Source: Escherichia phage ECML-183-2. Taken from it: a stretch of 64,000 bases of DNA. The stretch lies in the sequence record OL631481.1. One strand, given 5' to 3'. Shown in pieces: positions 4,328 to 40,614 of this stretch. The notes beneath the pieces are model-generated. The model was not told the origin of the DNA, made no database searches, and saw only the letters and a program-made list of their open reading frames with translations. The first letter of the stretch is position 1, and every line of letters begins with the position of its first letter. The translations under genes were made by a program, and so were the position numbers.

Positions 4328-4807
4328 TTAGTCCTTCTTGACTTTAACGCCCATTGCGCCTATACTCAAACCTTTAAGAACGCCGTCTTTACGAGCTTGA
4401 TATAATTCAGGGTCGTTGAATTGGATTTTAACGAGGGGAGTTCCTTCCACAACGAGTTCGTCACCAATGTAACAATCGACTTCATTTACCCAAGCTTTAA
4501 TTGGAGAAAACTTATCGGTGTTCTTCATGTGACCAAGATTACCACTAATGTTGGTAATATTCTCATTGAAGTTGTCAACCATCTTCCTGATTTCCAAATC
4601 AGACATGCGCTCTCCGTGGAGATCGTCTTCTTCAGGTGGACAATACAAGACCTCAATAACCTGCATCTTTTCTTCATCAAATTTATTTTGTTTGACTAGA
4701 GTTTCAGGTTTTTGAGATGGTATAGAATCTTGTTGGGATTCAGAATTCTCTTTAAAACCAGCGAAGGTTTTGAAGAGTTCCCACAGTGTATCTTTATTGA
4801 GTTCCAT
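4328..4807 (-). CDS. head morphogenesis protein (possible prohead protease)
   Basis: 159 aa ORF between portal and scaffold, the usual protease position; no catalytic motif recognised. Confidence 0.35.
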   Translation of the reverse strand: MELNKDTLWELFKTFAGFKENSESQQDSIPSQKPETLVKQNKFDEEKMQVIEVLYCPPEEDDLHGERMSDLEIRKMVDNFNENITNISGNLGHMKNTDKFSPIKAWVNEVDCYIGDELVVEGTPLVKIQFNDPELYQARKDGVLKGLSIGAMGVKVKKD

Positions 4808-15205: not shown

Positions 15206-15408
15206 TCCCTGTAGCTGGGTGGGTGGTATTGGCAACACTCAATGGGAATGTTACTGTGGAGACTAAAACCATCTTCAAAGCACCAGAAGATTGCTATAAC
15301 TCTTTGGTAACTTGGCCTCATGATACGGATGATAAGGCAGAGTATCAGTGTTTTTACATTGAGGGTAATCCTGTAGAATTTGAGGTTAAAGTGAAGGAGG
15401 AAAAATGA
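15184..15408 (+). CDS. hypothetical protein
   Basis: ORF in operon. Confidence 0.45.
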   Translation: MESGGTMIPVAGWVVLATLNGNVTVETKTIFKAPEDCYNSLVTWPHDTDDKAEYQCFYIEGNPVEFEVKVKEEK

Positions 15409-15875
15409 GAATTAAAGTAACTAAAGCTTACGATGATAACCCGAAGTTTATCTCTTTGAATAAGAGTTATGGTGTAGAAAACGGCGATGAGTTCGAGGTT
15501 ATCGATCTTTTTGAAGACCACGGTTATATTGTCAAAGCCCCAATCACAGAGCAGGCTATTATCATCTTACGCACAGAGGCTGTTGAGGTAGGTTCTGATG
15601 AGCCTCAATATGACAGCCCATACATGACAGAGTGGATCGTAGCTGTGGATGTTGGAGGTATGGTTTCTGTACTGAAAGCTCCTAATCTCCATCCTGGTTT
15701 TACAGAGAACGGTAAGACAGCTTTGGATTATGGGTTGCCAGAAGATGTTGAGAATACACCGCCAGGTATGTACCGTTGGATTTGCTCTTTCCATGAAGAG
15801 AAGGATTGGGAATCAGGGCTTGTAGATGATTGGCATTTTGAAGTGGAGAGTTCTTTTTTAATCATGCCAGCTTAG
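15405..15875 (+). CDS. hypothetical protein
   Basis: 156 aa ORF. Confidence 0.5.
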   Translation: MRIKVTKAYDDNPKFISLNKSYGVENGDEFEVIDLFEDHGYIVKAPITEQAIIILRTEAVEVGSDEPQYDSPYMTEWIVAVDVGGMVSVLKAPNLHPGFTENGKTALDYGLPEDVENTPPGMYRWICSFHEEKDWESGLVDDWHFEVESSFLIMPA

Positions 15876-18231: not shown

Positions 18232-18636
18232 ATGAAACAACTTATCATTTTACGTGGCGTTTCAGGTGCTGGTAAATCTACGGTAGCAGAAATTATTTCT
18301 GAAGGTTATTGGCCTATCTGTGAGGCAGATCAATATCATTACACAGAAAGTGGTGTTTACGATTGGAAGCCAGAAAATGTAGGTAAAGCACACGCATGGT
18401 GTCAGAGTATTGTTCGTGATGCTATGAAATCTGATCTTAAAAAGATTATTGTTTCTAACACTTCAACCACAGAGAAAGAACTTAAACCTTATTTAACTCT
18501 TGCTGAAGAGTTTGGTTATCAAGTTATCTCTTTAGTTGTTGAAAATAGACACGGTAACGATTCAATTCACGAGGTTCCACAACATATTCGTGATCAACAA
18601 GAGAAACGTCTTCGTGGTTCACTTAAACTTCAATAA
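18232..18636 (+). CDS. P-loop kinase, polynucleotide 5'-kinase-like
   Basis: Walker A GVSGAGKST near N-terminus; 134 aa; ATGA-coupled to the ligase gene. Confidence 0.55.
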   Translation: MKQLIILRGVSGAGKSTVAEIISEGYWPICEADQYHYTESGVYDWKPENVGKAHAWCQSIVRDAMKSDLKKIIVSNTSTTEKELKPYLTLAEEFGYQVISLVVENRHGNDSIHEVPQHIRDQQEKRLRGSLKLQ

Positions 18637-22841: not shown

Positions 22842-22853
22842 TTAGGGGGAAAT

Positions 22854-23972
22854 ATTAGCGGTTATATTTTAATTAAACCTGAAGATCTTCATTTATATGT
22901 CAACGAAGAAACAGTAGCTGCAATTGATTATGATCAGATCGCTTTCCAAGCAGCGTCTGCATTAGAGAAAAGAACAATCATTGCCAAGCACATCCCTTCA
23001 GGTGCTCAAAAGGAATTTAAAAATAAGACAGAGTTTTGGGGTAAAAGTAAGACTAAAATTGGAGGTTGGCTAGGAGATACAAATGCAGAAAGAGCCTCCA
23101 AAAACAAACGTCCCTTCACAAAGGAAGAGTTCGAAATTATTGATAAGCAATACCCGCCAGAAGATATCGGACACACCTTCCAAGCAGCTAAAACAAAAGT
23201 CTTAGGTATTCTAAAACATCTACGTTTAGAAAAATATTGCGGAGTTATTGGCGTAGGAAAAACTTTCAGACACGCCTTCAAAATGCCTGTAGAATATAAG
23301 TCTGAACGATTAGATATCAAACCACTTCAGCTTTCAGAAACCAAAGATTATCTTGTGGAGTTCCACAATGGTGATGTTGTTACTGTAATAGAGGCTGACG
23401 ATGAGTTAGAGAAGTATGGTTTCCAAGGTTATAAAGATTATAAAAGGACGGGTAAATTTTCTTATATTGTAGTGTCTATAGATAAAGATAGTTTACATAC
23501 TCCTAGTATCCTTTTTAATTTCTACAAAGAGGATGGAGTATTTAAAAATCCAGATATAATTCTTATTGACGAGTCTATTGGCGACATATGGATCGTAGAT
23601 AAAGGTAAAAAGAAAGAAGTTAAAGGTTGGGGAAGTTATTGGTTAGCCTATCAGATGCTAATGGGAGATAAAACAGATAGTATCCGACCTTATCAAGATT
23701 TTGATATTAAGTTTGGAGATATTACTTGTTTTAATCTTCTCTCAGCTTGTAAAACTCAAGCAGAGCTTTTCCAAACAGTTAAAGATACTTACTACTCGTG
23801 GTTCCCAGATGGTGTTAATTTTACTTCTTGGGATGGAGAAGAAGTCCATATGACAACAGACGAATGGATAGAAACAATTTTCCAGTTGGTATACATGAAA
23901 CGCTGGGATAATGACGATACAACATTTGAGAGTATGCTTCAGTCATACATCTCACAACAGGAGGCAGAGTGA
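22854..23972 (+). CDS. 5'-3' exonuclease / flap endonuclease (RNase H-like FEN family); start codon uncertain
   Basis: IDYDQIAF N-terminal motif, EADD, LMGDKTDSI (H3TH-like); conserved N-terminal domain lies in open frame 22842-23282 with no ATG/GTG/TTG. Confidence 0.5.
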   Translation: MSGYILIKPEDLHLYVNEETVAAIDYDQIAFQAASALEKRTIIAKHIPSGAQKEFKNKTEFWGKSKTKIGGWLGDTNAERASKNKRPFTKEEFEIIDKQYPPEDIGHTFQAAKTKVLGILKHLRLEKYCGVIGVGKTFRHAFKMPVEYKSERLDIKPLQLSETKDYLVEFHNGDVVTVIEADDELEKYGFQGYKDYKRTGKFSYIVVSIDKDSLHTPSILFNFYKEDGVFKNPDIILIDESIGDIWIVDKGKKKEVKGWGSYWLAYQMLMGDKTDSIRPYQDFDIKFGDITCFNLLSACKTQAELFQTVKDTYYSWFPDGVNFTSWDGEEVHMTTDEWIETIFQLVYMKRWDNDDTTFESMLQSYISQQEAE

Positions 23973-35837: not shown

Positions 35838-36338
35838 ATGGCTAAAGTAGTAGATGAGTTTGATATGCTACGAGTCGATGAAGGACTGAAGCTTACTGTT
35901 TATCAAGATCATCTTGGTTATTGGACAGTTGGCATAGGACACCTTCTGACTAAAATAAAAGATAAAGCAAAGGCTATTCAAATCTTAGATAATCTCCTTG
36001 GTCGTAAGACCAATGGAGTTATCACAGAAAAAGAAGCCCGTCAAATCTTTGCTGACGATGTTGCAAAAGTGAAGAGAGACATAAAAAACAGTGCTATCTT
36101 ATCACCAATCTATGATAAGGTGAGTGATACTCGTAAATTGGGAATAATCAACATGGTTTTCCAGTTGGGGTTAAAAGGTGCTGAAGGGTTTAAAAATAGC
36201 TTGACTTTAATCAGCAATGCATATTATACTCAAGCAGGTAAAAACATGCGTAAAAGCCGATGGTATAGCCAGACGCCAAACCGTGCTGAACGAGTAATTA
36301 AAGTTCTGACTTCTGGAACTTTAGATGCTTACAACTAA
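35838..36338 (+). CDS. T4-type lysozyme (GH24 muramidase)
   Basis: EGLKLTVYQD ... GYWTVGIGHL matches the T4 lysozyme catalytic region. Confidence 0.75.
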   Translation: MAKVVDEFDMLRVDEGLKLTVYQDHLGYWTVGIGHLLTKIKDKAKAIQILDNLLGRKTNGVITEKEARQIFADDVAKVKRDIKNSAILSPIYDKVSDTRKLGIINMVFQLGLKGAEGFKNSLTLISNAYYTQAGKNMRKSRWYSQTPNRAERVIKVLTSGTLDAYN

Positions 36339-36342
36339 TAAA

Positions 36343-36360
36343 GGGGCTTCGGCCCCTTCT
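36343..36360 (+). terminator. hairpin GGGGCTTCGGCCCC (copy 2 of 3)
   Basis: identical stem-loop; weak T-tract, so may be an attenuator or processing site. Confidence 0.4.
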
Positions 36361-36375
36361 AAAAGGAGTGCTACT

Positions 36376-37134
36376 ATGGGAAATAAAACCGCAGCTAAAA
36401 CACAACGGCAGAAACTGGCTAATTCAGCAAAGATTGAAAGCCGTTATGCAGCAAAAGCGGTAGGTAATGACGATTACCGTTTAGATGAATTTATGCCTGA
36501 AGGGGACCAAAATAAGATTGTTCAAAGCATGATTTGGAATGATCTGACTGTTGTAAATGCTCCGGCAGGGACTGGTAAAACCTCTGTTGCTTTATGGAAA
36601 GCTTTGCAGATGCTTCGTTCAGGAGACTTCCGTAAACTACTTTTTATCAAGAACCCTACTGAAGTCGGAGATGACCAGATTGGTTTCTTGTCTGGGGATA
36701 AAACAGATAAACTAGCAGCACACTATGAATCTACAAAACGTATTTTCCAGCAATTCATGACAGCCAACAAATTGGAAAACGATATTGGATCAGGTAAGAT
36801 CGAATTGAATATTCCTAACTATTTGTTGGGGGCTACCCTGGATAATACAATCGTCATTATTGACGAAGCACAACTTATGTCAACAGAAACACTTAAACTT
36901 CTTATTGAACGTGCAGGTATTAATACGCATGTTATTGTATTAGGCGATGTTCGCCAGACATATGCAATTAAAAAACGTAGCAATGGTCTGCATCAAATTT
37001 TGGAACTTTTATATCCAGAAAATGAAGAAGGTGTTCGTGAGCCAATTGTAGATTTTATTGGATACGTTGAACTGACAACGGACGATAATAAACGTGGACG
37101 TTTGTCTAAACTGATTACTGAAGTGTTTATTTAA
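36376..37134 (+). CDS. phoH: PhoH-like ATPase
   Basis: Walker A APAGTGKTS; start moved to ATG after AAAAGGAG. Confidence 0.7.
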   Translation: MGNKTAAKTQRQKLANSAKIESRYAAKAVGNDDYRLDEFMPEGDQNKIVQSMIWNDLTVVNAPAGTGKTSVALWKALQMLRSGDFRKLLFIKNPTEVGDDQIGFLSGDKTDKLAAHYESTKRIFQQFMTANKLENDIGSGKIELNIPNYLLGATLDNTIVIIDEAQLMSTETLKLLIERAGINTHVIVLGDVRQTYAIKKRSNGLHQILELLYPENEEGVREPIVDFIGYVELTTDDNKRGRLSKLITEVFI

Positions 37135-37166: not shown

Positions 37167-37670
37167 TTGATGGGTGTAGCAACAATAGCTATCGGAAGAA
37201 GCGGTATAGATGAGTGCTATCAAACGGGACTCGTAAAACCTAACGAATTTCGTCAAATTTGTGTAAACCATATTGAAAAAGAGATTGCTCTTACTTTAGA
37301 GAATATGACCCTCCGAGATAAACTGGAAATGTTTAAATGTTGGTGTCTAGGAGAAGATTGGCTTTTAAACCATTTTCAAGAACTTTCTGATAGTAAAGAA
37401 AGCTTGTTTGATTGTATAATAGGAATAGCTGGCTCCGATCCTAGCCTTCTGCACATAACAGAAGAAGAGGCGAAGTTACTGTTCTTAAGTAATTTGTTTA
37501 ATAAGAAAGCACTGCTTGTTCGTGATTGCAGTGATCTTCTTAATAACCCGCTCGCAACGTCTGATCAAATTTTTGTTGACAAAGAGACACTACGTGCGAT
37601 AGAATACATCTGCAAATATGTGAATGGCGGGAAAGCGGTTCTTAAAACATTAACAGAGGAGGAAGAATAG
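37167..37670 (+). CDS. hypothetical protein
   Basis: 167 aa ORF immediately upstream of the HslV-like gene. Confidence 0.45.
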   Translation: MMGVATIAIGRSGIDECYQTGLVKPNEFRQICVNHIEKEIALTLENMTLRDKLEMFKCWCLGEDWLLNHFQELSDSKESLFDCIIGIAGSDPSLLHITEEEAKLLFLSNLFNKKALLVRDCSDLLNNPLATSDQIFVDKETLRAIEYICKYVNGGKAVLKTLTEEEE

Positions 37671-38362
37671 TGACGACAATTATTGCAACCAAAAATAAGA
37701 TTTTGAGTGACGGTAAGGTAACTTTTGGTGGACGTGTAGATTCTATTAATTTCAAAAAGGTCCGAAAAATTGGAGATTACCTTGTAGGTGGTGCTGGTCG
37801 TCTGACCTCCGTGCTTTCTTTCTTTCAATGGTTTGAACAAAATCTACAGTGCGAAGCAGCACGTGATGCTGTCCCTGGTTTGATGATTCACTCTGATCCA
37901 GATAAAGAAGATGAAGAGTTTATTGCACTTGTTGTTCATCCAGACGGACGTATTTTCCTGCACGAAGGTAACAACCCAACACGTGCATATCCGATTGATG
38001 AAGAATATTATGCAGTAGGAAGTGGGTCAGACTTTGCTTTAGCTGCTCTTGATGCAGGGGCAACACCAGAACAGGCTATGGAAGTAGCTAAAAAGCGAGA
38101 TGCTTTTTCTGGTGGTGAAACATTTATTGAAGAACAAGACGAGATTATTGAATTAACAGATGATGATTTAGAAAACTTCTCCAAAGAAGAATTGATCAAT
38201 CTTTTGAAATTCGGTAATCCCTACGGTGAAGAAGAACCTCGTAACGTGGCAGGTAACGAGGCGGATACTGAAGAAAAATCTGTTGCAGAAAACAACTTGA
38301 CTTCTAAATCTGAAAATATTAATCTCGTAAATGTGGCGGATTTCGAAGGAACCGCTATTTAA
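37670..38362 (+). CDS. HslV-like Ntn-hydrolase peptidase with acidic C-terminal extension
   Basis: MTTIIATKN N-terminus (Thr after Met), KVRK, GGAG, AVGSGSDFALAALDAG core similar to HslV; about 80 aa acidic tail. Confidence 0.55.
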   Translation: MTTIIATKNKILSDGKVTFGGRVDSINFKKVRKIGDYLVGGAGRLTSVLSFFQWFEQNLQCEAARDAVPGLMIHSDPDKEDEEFIALVVHPDGRIFLHEGNNPTRAYPIDEEYYAVGSGSDFALAALDAGATPEQAMEVAKKRDAFSGGETFIEEQDEIIELTDDDLENFSKEELINLLKFGNPYGEEEPRNVAGNEADTEEKSVAENNLTSKSENINLVNVADFEGTAI

Positions 38363-38367
38363 CAAAC

Positions 38368-38390
38368 TGCCCCTTCGGGGGCATTTCTTA
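38368..38390 (+). terminator. hairpin TGCCCC-TTCG-GGGGCA followed by a U-rich tail
   Basis: read directly. Confidence 0.45.
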
Positions 38391-39832: not shown

Positions 39833-40027
39833 ATGCAGAGCGGAGAAGAACTTTTAGAGAAACAATTCTCAACGCGTCAACAAGCTTTAAGTTATATGGT
39901 TTTTCTAAGCAATCTTGATGTGAATGAGATACTTTTACGGCGCGAAGGTAATTTCTGGAGCGTTAAATATCATGCAACAAGGTCTGTAATCTACCTGGAA
40001 GAGGCGGAATTCTCTTTGGTAGAATGA
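39833..40027 (+). CDS. hypothetical protein
   Basis: 64 aa. Confidence 0.4.
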   Translation: MQSGEELLEKQFSTRQQALSYMVFLSNLDVNEILLRREGNFWSVKYHATRSVIYLEEAEFSLVE

Positions 40028-40041
40028 TCCGAGGAGTAGTT

Positions 40042-40614
40042 ATGCGTTCAACTTTCACTGGCAAAATAAATGCTGGTTTGATTTTTACAGCAGTAAGCAT
40101 TCTTAGCAAAAAGTTTAAAGTTGTTAACTTACCTGTGTGTGTCGATTTCGATCATGTTTTTGATCCTTCGAACCCCACTCGTTGCATAGTAAGGAGCAAT
40201 GTTGAAAACCCAACAGAAAATCTTTTTTATGTAACAAAACCATCTCAAAGCATACTTAACCAGGTTGAGGCGAAATTGATACCTAACGGTAAATATTACT
40301 CCTTTTTACCTTGTAAGTCGGTTGAAGTAGAGAATAGCAATACTTTCGCTAATAACTTGTCTGTATTCGTTTTCTTTGTTTCACAGGAAGACGAAACAGA
40401 TGAAATGGTAGCAACAGTGAGATCACTTTATGACTCTTTAGGGGTTGTTTATAGTCAACAAGTGTGCGAAAATAATAAAGCCTGTGTAGATTTCATTATC
40501 AACGGTATTTGTGTTTGTAGAGTAGAATCTTTTTGGCTGCACGATACATATGTGACTGTAGCAGAGGTTATATCTGAACCAAGATTTAGTCATGCGGTTT
40601 CGTTAATAATTTGA
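40042..40614 (+). CDS. hypothetical protein
   Basis: start moved to ATG after GAGGAG. Confidence 0.45.
   Translation: MRSTFTGKINAGLIFTAVSILSKKFKVVNLPVCVDFDHVFDPSNPTRCIVRSNVENPTENLFYVTKPSQSILNQVEAKLIPNGKYYSFLPCKSVEVENSNTFANNLSVFVFFVSQEDETDEMVATVRSLYDSLGVVYSQQVCENNKACVDFIINGICVCRVESFWLHDTYVTVAEVISEPRFSHAVSLII

Follow-up and report, generated by a model that had tools for sequence, protein, structure and literature searches.

A putative free-standing threonine peptidase of the phage proteasome-homologue family with an acidic C-terminal tail in an Escherichia phage

Escherichia phage ECML-183-2 carries, in the 64-kb stretch of DNA analysed here (sequence record OL631481.1; hereafter the window), a gene for an HslV-like peptidase with an acidic C-terminal tail. 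The locus raises the question of which kind of proteasome-like enzyme is encoded, and whether it would act with an unfoldase of the host, with a partner from the phage itself, or alone. The window is 99.8% identical to Escherichia phage phAPEC8, in which the counterpart of the gene (G377_gp175, YP_007348462.1; 99.6% protein identity) is named 'peptidase HslV family' in RefSeq. The gene had thus been correctly annotated in databases before, its family has been published, and an orphan HslV-like peptidase in a phage is not new. We found no biochemical or genetic data in the searchable literature on any member of this phage proteasome-homologue family (PPH); what is written on phAPEC8 or on PPH function consists of genome annotations and a 2021 bioinformatics paper.

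The product is a proteasome-type Ntn hydrolase, as the earlier note on this DNA had proposed from the letters and their translations, and its similarity to such enzymes exceeds chance by far. It matches PHROG 1040 ('peptidase HslV family') over its full length (E=1.6e-63) and scores above the gathering threshold of the Pfam family Proteasome (PF00227; 25.6 bits versus 22.4). Its best solved relative is HslV of T. maritima (1m4y), with E=4.9e-9 for the single sequence and 2.1e-14 for the family profile. Structure prediction, a check that the earlier note had named, gave an AlphaFold2 monomer model (pLDDT 85, pTM 0.70) whose fold fits the Ntn family, with Foldseek matches to HslV, BPH and 20S beta subunits at E of about 1e-10 and probability 1.0. 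At the level of sequence, the protein is not an HslV orthologue, because it falls far below the cut-offs of the curated HslV equivalog models NF003964 and TIGR03692 (32.2 versus 137 bits and 31.4 versus 157.75 bits). We assign it to PPH, the family described by Fuchs, Alva and Lupas in 2021, following the published description of that family. The features of the gene and its neighbours are collected in Table 1.

Table 1. Features of the peptidase gene and of the genes upstream of it, with positions in the window
Feature	Positions	Strand	Details and basis
PhoH-like P-loop ATPase, first gene of the PhoH-gp174-PPH run	36325..37134	+	Pfam PF02562, E=1.2e-36
Upstream ORF gp174 (phAPEC8), PHROG 14834	37167..37670	+	about 164-167 aa; its stop shares 1 nt with the PPH start
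Shine-Dalgarno-like GAGGAGGAAG	37656..37665	+	direct reading; GAGGAGG, 7 nt 5' of GTG
CDS, PPH-family proteasome-like Thr peptidase	37670..38362	+	230 aa, GTG start
Ntn-hydrolase core, residues 2-155	37673..38134	+	alignments, model pLDDT >90, Foldseek
Acidic loop VPGLMIHSDPDKEDEEF, residues 68-84	37871..37921	+	model, conservation, composition
Conserved tail motif LTDDDLENFSKEELINLLKF, residues 164-181	38159..38212	+	two short helices predicted
Poorly conserved C-terminal tail, residues 182-230	38213..38359	+	pLDDT <50 for most of 190-212
Intrinsic-terminator-like hairpin TGCCCCTTCGGGGGCA, then TTTCTT	38368..38390	+	6 nt 3' of the PPH stop

The active site is complete. Counting from the start codon, the equivalents of the catalytic and structural residues of HslV and the proteasome are T2 (Thr1), D14 (Asp17), K30 (Lys33) and G43 (Gly47), with S118 (Ser129), D144 (Asp166) and S147 (Ser169) further on in the core. 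S118 is also the equivalent of HslV Ser124, so that the HslV set of Thr, Asp17, Lys33 and Ser124 is present. Across 47 sequences with identities down to 26%, no variation is seen at T2, T3, D14, K30, G117-S118-G119 or D144, and conservation at G43 and S147 is at least 90%. The three segments singled out in the earlier note, KVRK (within KKVRK), GGAG and AVGSGSDFALAALDAG, are all there; in alignments with HslV and proteasome beta subunits they fall on Lys33, on the Gly45/47 oxyanion region and on Ser124/129. The N-terminus reads V(M)TTIIATKN, and since the ORF begins with (M)TT a propeptide is absent; 167 of the 233 relatives start with MTTI. Methionine aminopeptidase acts on proteins with Thr as the second residue, and removal of the initiator Met would expose this Thr as the nucleophile, as the earlier note had read it. 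That the whole set of proteolytic residues is invariant speaks for an enzyme that has kept its hydrolytic chemistry.

The part of the fold that bears most on a host partner is the region of helix H2. In the model, a single long helix (residues 45-67) is followed by the 17-residue acidic loop, and the next helix in its DSSP assignment begins only at residue 120. In HslV this site holds helix H2 and the pore loop, so that H2 is predicted to be missing here; D81, E82 and F84 of the loop are nearly invariant. The PPH and RPC groups have been described as being without H2 (PMC8665760). In HslV, the pocket for the HslU C-terminus is formed by Phe54 and Phe57 of H1, Ala79 and Lys80 of H2, and Gln114 (PMC6429459). 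By alignment, the H1 half of this pocket is kept in kind in the phage protein (Phe57 to Phe52, Phe54 to Leu49), Gln114 aligns to Thr, and the H2 half has no counterpart in the model. HslV Lys28, which we take to touch the carboxylate at the C-terminus of HslU, aligns to a Ser/Asp position that varies in the family. Because H2 carries part of the pocket for the HslU tail, the model makes canonical HslU docking unlikely. The suggestion in the earlier note that the phage may recruit host HslU or ClpX/ClpY-type unfoldases gained no positive evidence, and the low scores with the HslV models and the predicted absence of H2 speak against it.

Beyond the core that can be aligned with HslV, the protein continues for about 70-75 residues (156-230), with 20 Asp/Glu versus 5 Lys/Arg and a net charge of -15. 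The Asp/Glu-rich extension of the earlier note therefore exists and is acidic, with a length nearer to 70-75 than to the 80 or so residues given there. It is not uniformly unstructured. The tail opens with a conserved motif of two helices, LTxExLxxΦ[ST]KEELΦxLL, that is confidently predicted as helical (helices at 164-169 and 172-181; block pLDDT 90-93), and disorder is predicted from about residue 190. The motif is found in 81 of the 233 family sequences, at identities down to about 32%, and its E173 and L175 are invariant in one of our alignments. Of 147 tails in the family that have at least 30 aa, 138 carry a net negative charge. We rejected the idea of a docking motif common to other phage proteins, since a six-frame regex scan of the whole phAPEC8 genome returned PPH itself and one loose match. 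Longer relatives carry extra C-terminal modules on the tail. Reading their endings and the tail motif as HeH/SAP (Rho_N-like) was also set aside; the Pfam Rho_N match was weak (E=0.057), and a profile of 13 such endings found nothing relevant among PDB sequences. The protein studied here is without the HeH/SAP-like ending of these relatives.

Comparison with known systems places the protein closest to PPH. It shares with this family a phage-borne proteasome-like Ntn core, the lack of a propeptide and of H2, and the Thr1/Asp17/Lys33/Gly47 set. Its full core is significantly similar to phage proteins of 130-160 aa that fit the family description, and over its whole length this core is 34% identical to a tail-less relative of 142 aa. 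PPH was described at about 140 residues (Fuchs et al. 2021) and many relatives have 130-160 aa, whereas here a core of about 155 residues is followed by a tail of about 75, with its conserved two-helix motif and acidic disordered end. A core of this type without H2, joined to a C-terminal extension with no match among known structures, also fits the description of RPC; however, RPC has been reported only from Proteobacteria and not from phages (PMC8665760), and the tailed clade here is found in phages and not in bacterial species genomes. BPH of Thiobacillus denitrificans (PDB 5ovs) gives a Foldseek match as strong as that of HslV (E of about 6e-10) and also has an acidic segment at the position of the pore loop, but it keeps both H1 and H2 and is tail-less. 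It is reportedly a heptameric double ring. With bacterial HslV (ClpQ) the protein shares the MTTI start, Thr1 after Met removal and the equivalents of Asp17, Lys33 and Ser124; it differs in the missing H2, the incomplete pocket for the HslU tail, the lack of an hslU neighbour and the extra C-terminal tail. It also retains RDxxSGG, a motif of 20S beta subunits; the corresponding stretch of E. coli HslV reads DICIYTN. The likeness to 20S beta subunits extends to the Pfam score and to all seven classical residues, Asp166 and Ser169 of RDxxSGG among them, but the phage protein has no alpha-type partner, propeptide or H2, and its core is much shorter.

We searched the surroundings of the gene for an unfoldase. 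In the window, tblastn with an approximate E. coli HslU query gave only matches with E>7. The ORFs of at least 100 aa with a Walker A motif, judged at the level of the motif, are PhoH, a 134-aa ORF (18232-18633) and two ORFs (15390-15872 and 22842-23969) in which the GK[ST] match lies at least 100 residues in, in a non-P-loop context. The absence of an HslU partner from the window, as stated in the earlier note, was upheld by this search, with no such gene among the Walker A ORFs characterised. The annotation of the phAPEC8 genome likewise has no HslU or ClpX gene, and none of 73 viral loci (IMG/VR) has an AAA+ gene adjoining PPH. The PhoH-like ATPase is no AAA+ unfoldase. The sole classical AAA protein (PF00004) annotated in phAPEC8 is gp014, which is outside the window and about 100 kb away. 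Its C-terminus (...LGSVF) has no HbYX motif, and its relatives are mostly in phages of Enterococcus, Bacillus and Staphylococcus, a distribution that differs from that of PPH. We therefore rejected gp014 as a specific unfoldase partner, since it does not co-vary with PPH, has no HbYX motif and lies outside the window. In the PADLOC defence catalogue there was no match for PPH, gp174 or the downstream gene.

The protein encoded immediately upstream is all-alpha and shows neither a recognisable fold nor a motif, in agreement with the earlier view that it is not an AAA+ ATPase. A gp174-like protein lies directly upstream of PPH in all 21 of the gp174-carrying loci of a Stephanstirmvirinae-like clade, with PPH identities down to 47%. 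These proteins are strongly conserved (29 invariant columns) and are confined to that one clade (41 matches). gp174 may be a partner of PPH. In the Aeromonas clade, the upstream neighbour of PPH is a second Ntn paralogue, to which gp174 has no similarity (BLASTP E=7), and the annotation of phAPEC8 lists no further proteasome-like gene. Every tailed PPH examined, whether from the E. coli, the Aeromonas or the Vibrio clade, has PhoH upstream, and the module of glutaredoxin, lysozyme, PhoH, PPH and DprA is syntenic as a whole. In other PPH clades the neighbours are unrelated, for example HDAC-like and AdoMet-decarboxylase-like (motifs by eye).

In keeping with PPH as a family of tailed phages or their prophages, relatives of the protein occur in 233 GenBank phage records; there are also 2334 representative clusters, and BFVD has 45 structure clusters. 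All hosts named in the GenBank records are Proteobacteria. Since Proteobacteria generally possess HslUV, this distribution gives no ground against the use of host HslU. A scan of 185,579 bacterial species genomes did not find the close tailed subfamily, apart from one contaminant contig of 425 bp. Other matches in these genomes are at most 37% identical, mostly in Synergistota and Thermotogota, and are presumably the HslV-type genes of those genomes themselves. With only these two kinds of match, bacterial host copies of the tailed clade were rejected. A natural deletion bears on the need for the gene. In phage VEcB, an in-frame deletion fuses the N-terminus of PhoH to PPH from about residue 66, and this removes gp174 and the PPH equivalents of Thr1, Asp17 and Lys33. 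Because VEcB is viable without the catalytic half of PPH, we regard PPH as dispensable.

Taken jointly, these data lead us to favour, with a probability of about 0.6, a compact HslV/BPH-related Ntn threonine peptidase of the PPH family that acts as a free-standing accessory enzyme. We suggest that it would assemble into proteasome-like rings and work independently of canonical docking to host HslU, comparable to BPH, which has no known unfoldase (PMC8665760). The helices and acidic arms at the C-terminus would point away from the ring and could help to dock or select substrates or a partner. Its substrates would most plausibly be unfolded or basic proteins of the host or the phage, and the enzyme may raise fitness under some conditions while not being essential for growth. 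Without HslU, HslV by itself shows only weak activity (PMC6429459), so a free-standing PPH might need an unrecognised activator.

Two alternatives would give the peptidase a partner. HslV is a dodecamer of two hexameric rings that HslU activates. Similar hexameric rings of the phage peptidase could dock to host HslU (ClpY) or another AAA+ unfoldase of the host and turn it against host or defence proteins. Both sequence and fold make HslV the nearest solved relative, no phage unfoldase accompanies PPH, the hydrophobic H1 positions of the pocket are kept in kind, and the named hosts are Proteobacteria. We nevertheless find this doubtful, since the HslV equivalog models are missed by more than 100 bits, H2 is absent together with the pocket residues Ala79 and Lys80, the position of Lys28 is not conserved, and the acidic loop that replaces H2 and the pore loop resembles that of BPH. 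Alternatively, gp174 could be a regulator, cap, adaptor or inhibitor of PPH, and PhoH or gp014 may supply the ATPase. The one-base overlap between the TAG stop of gp174 and the GTG start of PPH (translational coupling), the constant position of gp174 in its clade with its invariant columns, and the PhoH gene found upstream in three clades would all agree with this, as would the VEcB deletion, which took parts or all of PhoH, gp174 and PPH in one event. The second Ntn paralogue of the Aeromonas clade also implies that a two-component arrangement may be general. However, synteny of the whole module means that adjacency can reflect shared ancestry and not function, gp174 is restricted to one clade and has no recognisable fold or motif, and other PPH clades have unrelated neighbours. 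PhoH is not an ATPase of the unfoldase type, and gp014 is remote on the phAPEC8 map and distributed unlike PPH. We consider a phage-encoded partner unlikely.

Other readings concern the chemistry and the role of the protein. One possibility is a dedicated processing enzyme or a ligase, given that the protein ligase connectase belongs to the proteasome-like superfamily (PMC8665760), or a catalytically idle scaffold with a functional tail, for which the conserved tail motif and the added modules of longer relatives could speak. We give this little chance, because the complete proteolytic residue set is invariant and the two-helix insertion of connectase between strands S3 and S4 is not seen in the secondary structure of the model. 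A role as prohead (capsid maturation) protease is very improbable. Nothing beyond its being a phage-encoded peptidase recommends it, and the gene lies in the early/middle nucleotide-metabolism and auxiliary arm, not in the head module, on the strand opposite to the structural genes. A prohead protease of the S78_2/XkdF type adjoins the portal and scaffold genes (window positions 4328-4807), and VEcB lives without the catalytic half of PPH. Finally, the tail helices, LTDDDLENFSKEELINLL, could replace H2 or fill the inter-subunit groove as a built-in activator, which would make a self-sufficient viral mini-proteasome. The HslU C-terminus, EDLSRFIL, uses this groove in HslV (PMC4106860), and the tail resembles it in the pattern [DE]-D-L-x-x-F, a likeness that is short and could easily be due to chance. 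We consider this improbable. If true, the acidic pore loop and arms would capture host proteins that are basic and bind nucleic acids, for example nucleoid or defence factors, and their cleavage would be ATP-independent.

Proteasome-like peptidases are widespread in phage genomes, and their functions are so far putative. A coliphage that grows on K-12 and has PPH in a three-gene unit is a tractable system for asking which substrates a viral proteasome homologue has, whether it needs an unfoldase and what the tail motif binds. Our additions are modest: a structural argument against canonical HslU docking, a definition of the tail motif, and the natural VEcB deletion as evidence for dispensability.

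A sigma-70-like promoter candidate within gp174 (37576-37605, 11/12 matches) was rejected; the region has just as many such sites as shuffled sequence would lead one to expect, and therefore it is not counted as evidence. PPH closes the PhoH-gp174-PPH run and is followed by the terminator-like hairpin, which is probably the end of the transcription unit; in MZ726793 a terminator is annotated at this place.

The earlier note had described the product of the ORF, which we call PPH (phage proteasome homologue), as an HslV-like N-terminal-nucleophile peptidase. Our analysis confirms this observation, and the family call is right. By several independent measures, PPH is an Ntn hydrolase of the proteasome/HslV type. 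It scores 25.6 bits against Pfam Proteasome PF00227 (gathering score 22.4) and matches PHROG 1040 over its full length (E=1.6e-63). Among solved structures it comes closest to HslVs (E=4.9e-9 from the single sequence, 2.1e-14 from a profile of 47 sequences), with 20S beta5 subunits ranking after them (E=1.7e-11). The structure prediction suggested in that note agrees: the AlphaFold2 model (mean pLDDT 85, pTM 0.70, core blocks >90) matches HslV (6kui, 3ty6, 1m4y), BPH (5ovs) and archaeal and eukaryotic beta subunits in Foldseek (E ~1e-10, probability 1.0, target-normalised TM ~0.65). RefSeq and PHROGs already annotate the gene in this way, and the family has been in the literature since 2021; this instance is no discovery. 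The function of phage proteasome homologues is a real question, and it is testable in this coliphage.

The active-site residues are kept. T2, T3, D14, K30, G117-S118-G119 and D144 are invariant in family alignments reaching down to 26% identity, and conservation of G43 and S147 there is 90% or higher. In proteasome beta subunits, the residues corresponding to S118, D144 and S147 are Ser129, Asp166 and Ser169. The initiator Met is removed where Thr occupies position 2. Of the 233 retrieved relatives 167 start MTTI, so Met removal alone exposes the nucleophile, as had been proposed, and no propeptide is present. T2, D14, K30 and G43 are the equivalents of Thr1, Asp17, Lys33 and Gly47, the proteasome-type triad and glycine as named in PMC8665760.

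PPH is not an HslV orthologue: on the two curated NCBIfam HslV equivalogs it scores 32.2 and 31.4 bits, where 137 and 157.75 are required. In the model, a single long helix (45-67) leads into an acidic loop of 17 residues, VPGLMIHSDPDKEDEEF (68-84), in which D81, E82 and F84 are nearly invariant; the corresponding part of HslV is helix H2 plus a short pore loop. H2 is absent in two groups described by Fuchs, Alva and Lupas 2021 (PMC8665760), and one helix plus an acidic loop is the signature given for them. We file the protein under PPH by the published group descriptions; it may possibly belong instead to RPC or to a PPH-with-tail subgroup. An exhaustive HMMER search at E<=1e-3 gave 2334 representative clusters, of which many are 130-160 aa long, and a 142-aa relative is 34% identical across the whole PPH core; at the same threshold, 45 viral structure clusters match in BFVD. 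The close, tailed clade comprises 233 GenBank phage records and 73 IMG/VR loci and is phage-only within the sampling done here. Among bacteria (one genome per species) it was represented just by a 425-bp contaminant contig; the other matches are at most 37% identical, come mostly from Synergistota and Thermotogota, and presumably represent HslV-type genes native to those genomes. The contig (JAPMLR010000072.1, 'Lysobacteraceae bacterium JHOS43') carries residues 68-208 of PPH at 100% identity and is almost certainly coliphage contamination of the bacterial assembly.

The phage is a phAPEC8-type coliphage (Phapecoctavirus, Stephanstirmvirinae), and the 1.7-kb stretch round the gene is 99.8% identical to JX561091/NC_020079 and some 60 further isolates. 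The start codon shares one base with the TAG of the upstream ORF, whose product is gp174, and lies 7 nt downstream of a Shine-Dalgarno GAGGAGG. A sigma-70-like site inside gp174 (TTGACA, 18 nt, TAGAAT; 11/12 matches), ~65 nt 5' of the start, may be a chance match because the regional count of such sites equals the shuffle expectation. RefSeq lists the gene as G377_gp175/YP_007348462.1, 'peptidase HslV family'; other depositors use 'ATP-dependent protease subunit HslV', 'putative 20S proteasome' or 'hypothetical protein'. In the record of phage Ro121c4YLVW, PPH (P0023) is annotated from internal Met72 as a 159-aa 'hypothetical protein'. This is an annotation artefact missing the GTG start and catalytic N-terminus, not a truncation.

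Coordinates of the features discussed (window positions unless stated)
Feature	Position	Strand	Remarks
PPH ORF	37670-38362	+	230 codons; GTG start
Terminator-like hairpin	38368-38383, then TTTCTT		6 nt past PPH stop
Sigma-70-like site	37576-37605	+	
Ro121c4YLVW PPH as annotated	37883-38362	+	
S78_2/XkdF protease ORF (phAPEC8 gp117)	4328-4807	-	Pfam Peptidase_S78_2, E=1.4e-11
196-aa ORF	40024-40614	+	
gp014, PHROG 2376	L003:39005-41404 = phAPEC8 139005-141404		outside window
VEcB fusion ORF (P0066)	L083:3001-3804		
2L372D paralogue	L004:3432-3983		
2L372D tailed PPH	L004:4001-4885		

The claim that the window encodes no HslU partner stands: no gene resembling HslU or ClpX occurs in these 64 kb. 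Four ORFs of 100 aa or more have a Walker-A match: PhoH, a 134-aa ORF and two in which the match is loose and not P-loop-like; of these, PhoH alone was scanned. The complete phAPEC8 annotation has one classical AAA protein, gp014 (PF00004, 29.9 bits), ~100 kb from PPH on the map. Its relatives are mainly in Enterococcus, Bacillus, Staphylococcus and Lactococcus phages and PPH is found in Escherichia, Vibrio, Caulobacter, Aeromonas and Rhizobium phages; these distributions show no co-variation outside this subfamily. The gp014 gene adjoins an endonuclease with four CapR-homology repeats, and AAA proteins of the gp014 type occur widely in Herelleviridae-type phages that infect Gram-positive bacteria.

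An AAA+ gene adjoins PPH in none of the 73 viral loci, where its neighbours vary between clades. In Stephanstirmvirinae-like loci (21 carry gp174), gp174 is the direct upstream neighbour, down to 47% PPH identity, and overlaps PPH by 1-4 nt. It is strongly conserved, confined to this clade (41 matches) and all-alpha without a fold match; it is no ATPase, and is a candidate partner. PhoH precedes gp174. This synteny may simply be inherited, because the whole order glutaredoxin, lysozyme, PhoH, PPH, DprA also occurs in Aeromonas and Vibrio phages.

Recruitment of host HslU had also been proposed. The C-terminal ends of HslU (EDLSRFIL for the E. coli protein, PMC4106860) activate HslV by entering pockets between its subunits, lined by Phe54, Phe57, Ala79, Lys80 and Gln114 (PMC6429459). 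The H1 positions are kept in kind in PPH (Leu49, Phe52), but Ala79 and Lys80 belong to H2, which is missing, and the residue aligned with Gln114 is a Thr. As judged from alignment and model, this argues against canonical docking; an unconventional interaction is possible. Because isolated HslV is a poor enzyme (PMC6429459), a need for some activator stays, by analogy, a real possibility. 'HslV without HslU' in phages has been remarked earlier (PMC7823757), and an HslV-family protein of a jumbo phage localises to the phage nucleus (bioRxiv 2023.02.24.529968).

The reported acidic extension is indeed acidic (20 Asp/Glu and 5 Lys/Arg in residues 156-230), and it also has internal structure. Residues 164-181 (LTDDDLENFSKEELINLLKF) form two short predicted helices (block pLDDT 90-93) and fit the motif ~[LI]-T-x-E-x-[LM]-x-x-Φ-[ST]-K-E-[EQ]-L-Φ-x-[LM]-Φ, present in 81 of 233 relatives, some just ~32% identical in the core. 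Beyond it, conservation is poor and pLDDT is <50 for most of 190-212. Acidity of the tail is typical of the family: of 147 tails with 30 aa or more, 138 carry a net negative charge, and D/E make up 25% on average. According to Fuchs et al. (PMC8665760), C-termini in this superfamily generally extend outward from the presumed rings, where they might mediate interactions. Longer relatives (260-380 aa; P0061-P0063, P0068, P0075-P0079, P0092-P0138) carry extra C-terminal modules past the acidic linker, some Cys- and Trp-rich, one with CxH...CxxC spacing and Trp-rich ends. Many end in Lxx(L/I)xxxLG(I/V)x(Y/H)xxxxxxKxxLxxK, which looks HeH/SAP-like from a sole weak Pfam Rho_N match (E=0.057); a profile of 13 such endings had no relevant match among PDB sequences.

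Escherichia phage VEcB (MT932211.1, Justusliebigvirus) has one 267-aa ORF between lysozyme and a gp176-like gene, an in-frame fusion of PhoH residues 1 to ~114 with PPH from ~residue 66. The remaining PhoH, the whole of gp174 and the Thr1/Asp17/Lys33 equivalents are lost. In effect, this viable isolate is a natural knockout of the three-gene unit. Provided that the assembly is correct, the unit is dispensable for propagation on a laboratory host, which fits an accessory role. We suggest that PPH is most likely a ring-forming, propeptide-free threonine peptidase that would act without canonical HslU docking, with acidic arms facing outward and a conserved helical docking motif, and would be expressed from an accessory PhoH-gp174-PPH unit. 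The fold, the active-site residues, the lack of H2, the tail motif, the missing unfoldase and, on the above condition, the dispensability are shown here; we infer ring assembly, HslU independence, what the tail does and what is cleaved.

A capsid protease role was rejected for PPH: an S78_2/XkdF protease already lies beside the portal gene. RefSeq labels this protein, gp117, 'DNA methyltransferase'; its Peptidase_S78_2 match suggests that it is probably a mis-annotated head maturation protease. Defence catalogues gave no link to PPH. The phAPEC8 counterpart of a 196-aa ORF is labelled 'histidyl tRNA synthetase', as is a second gene elsewhere in that genome; the label looks doubtful because 196 aa is far too small for HisRS. 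Aeromonas phage 2L372D, like L028-L033 among the comparison loci, has two adjacent proteasome-like genes. The first encodes a 183-aa paralogue that begins (M)TCIIAL and has GCG instead of GSG (hhalign against the PPH family: probability 81%, E=1.2e-5); the second, directly behind it, encodes a 294-aa tailed PPH, and the pair could form a two-subunit phage proteasome-like particle.
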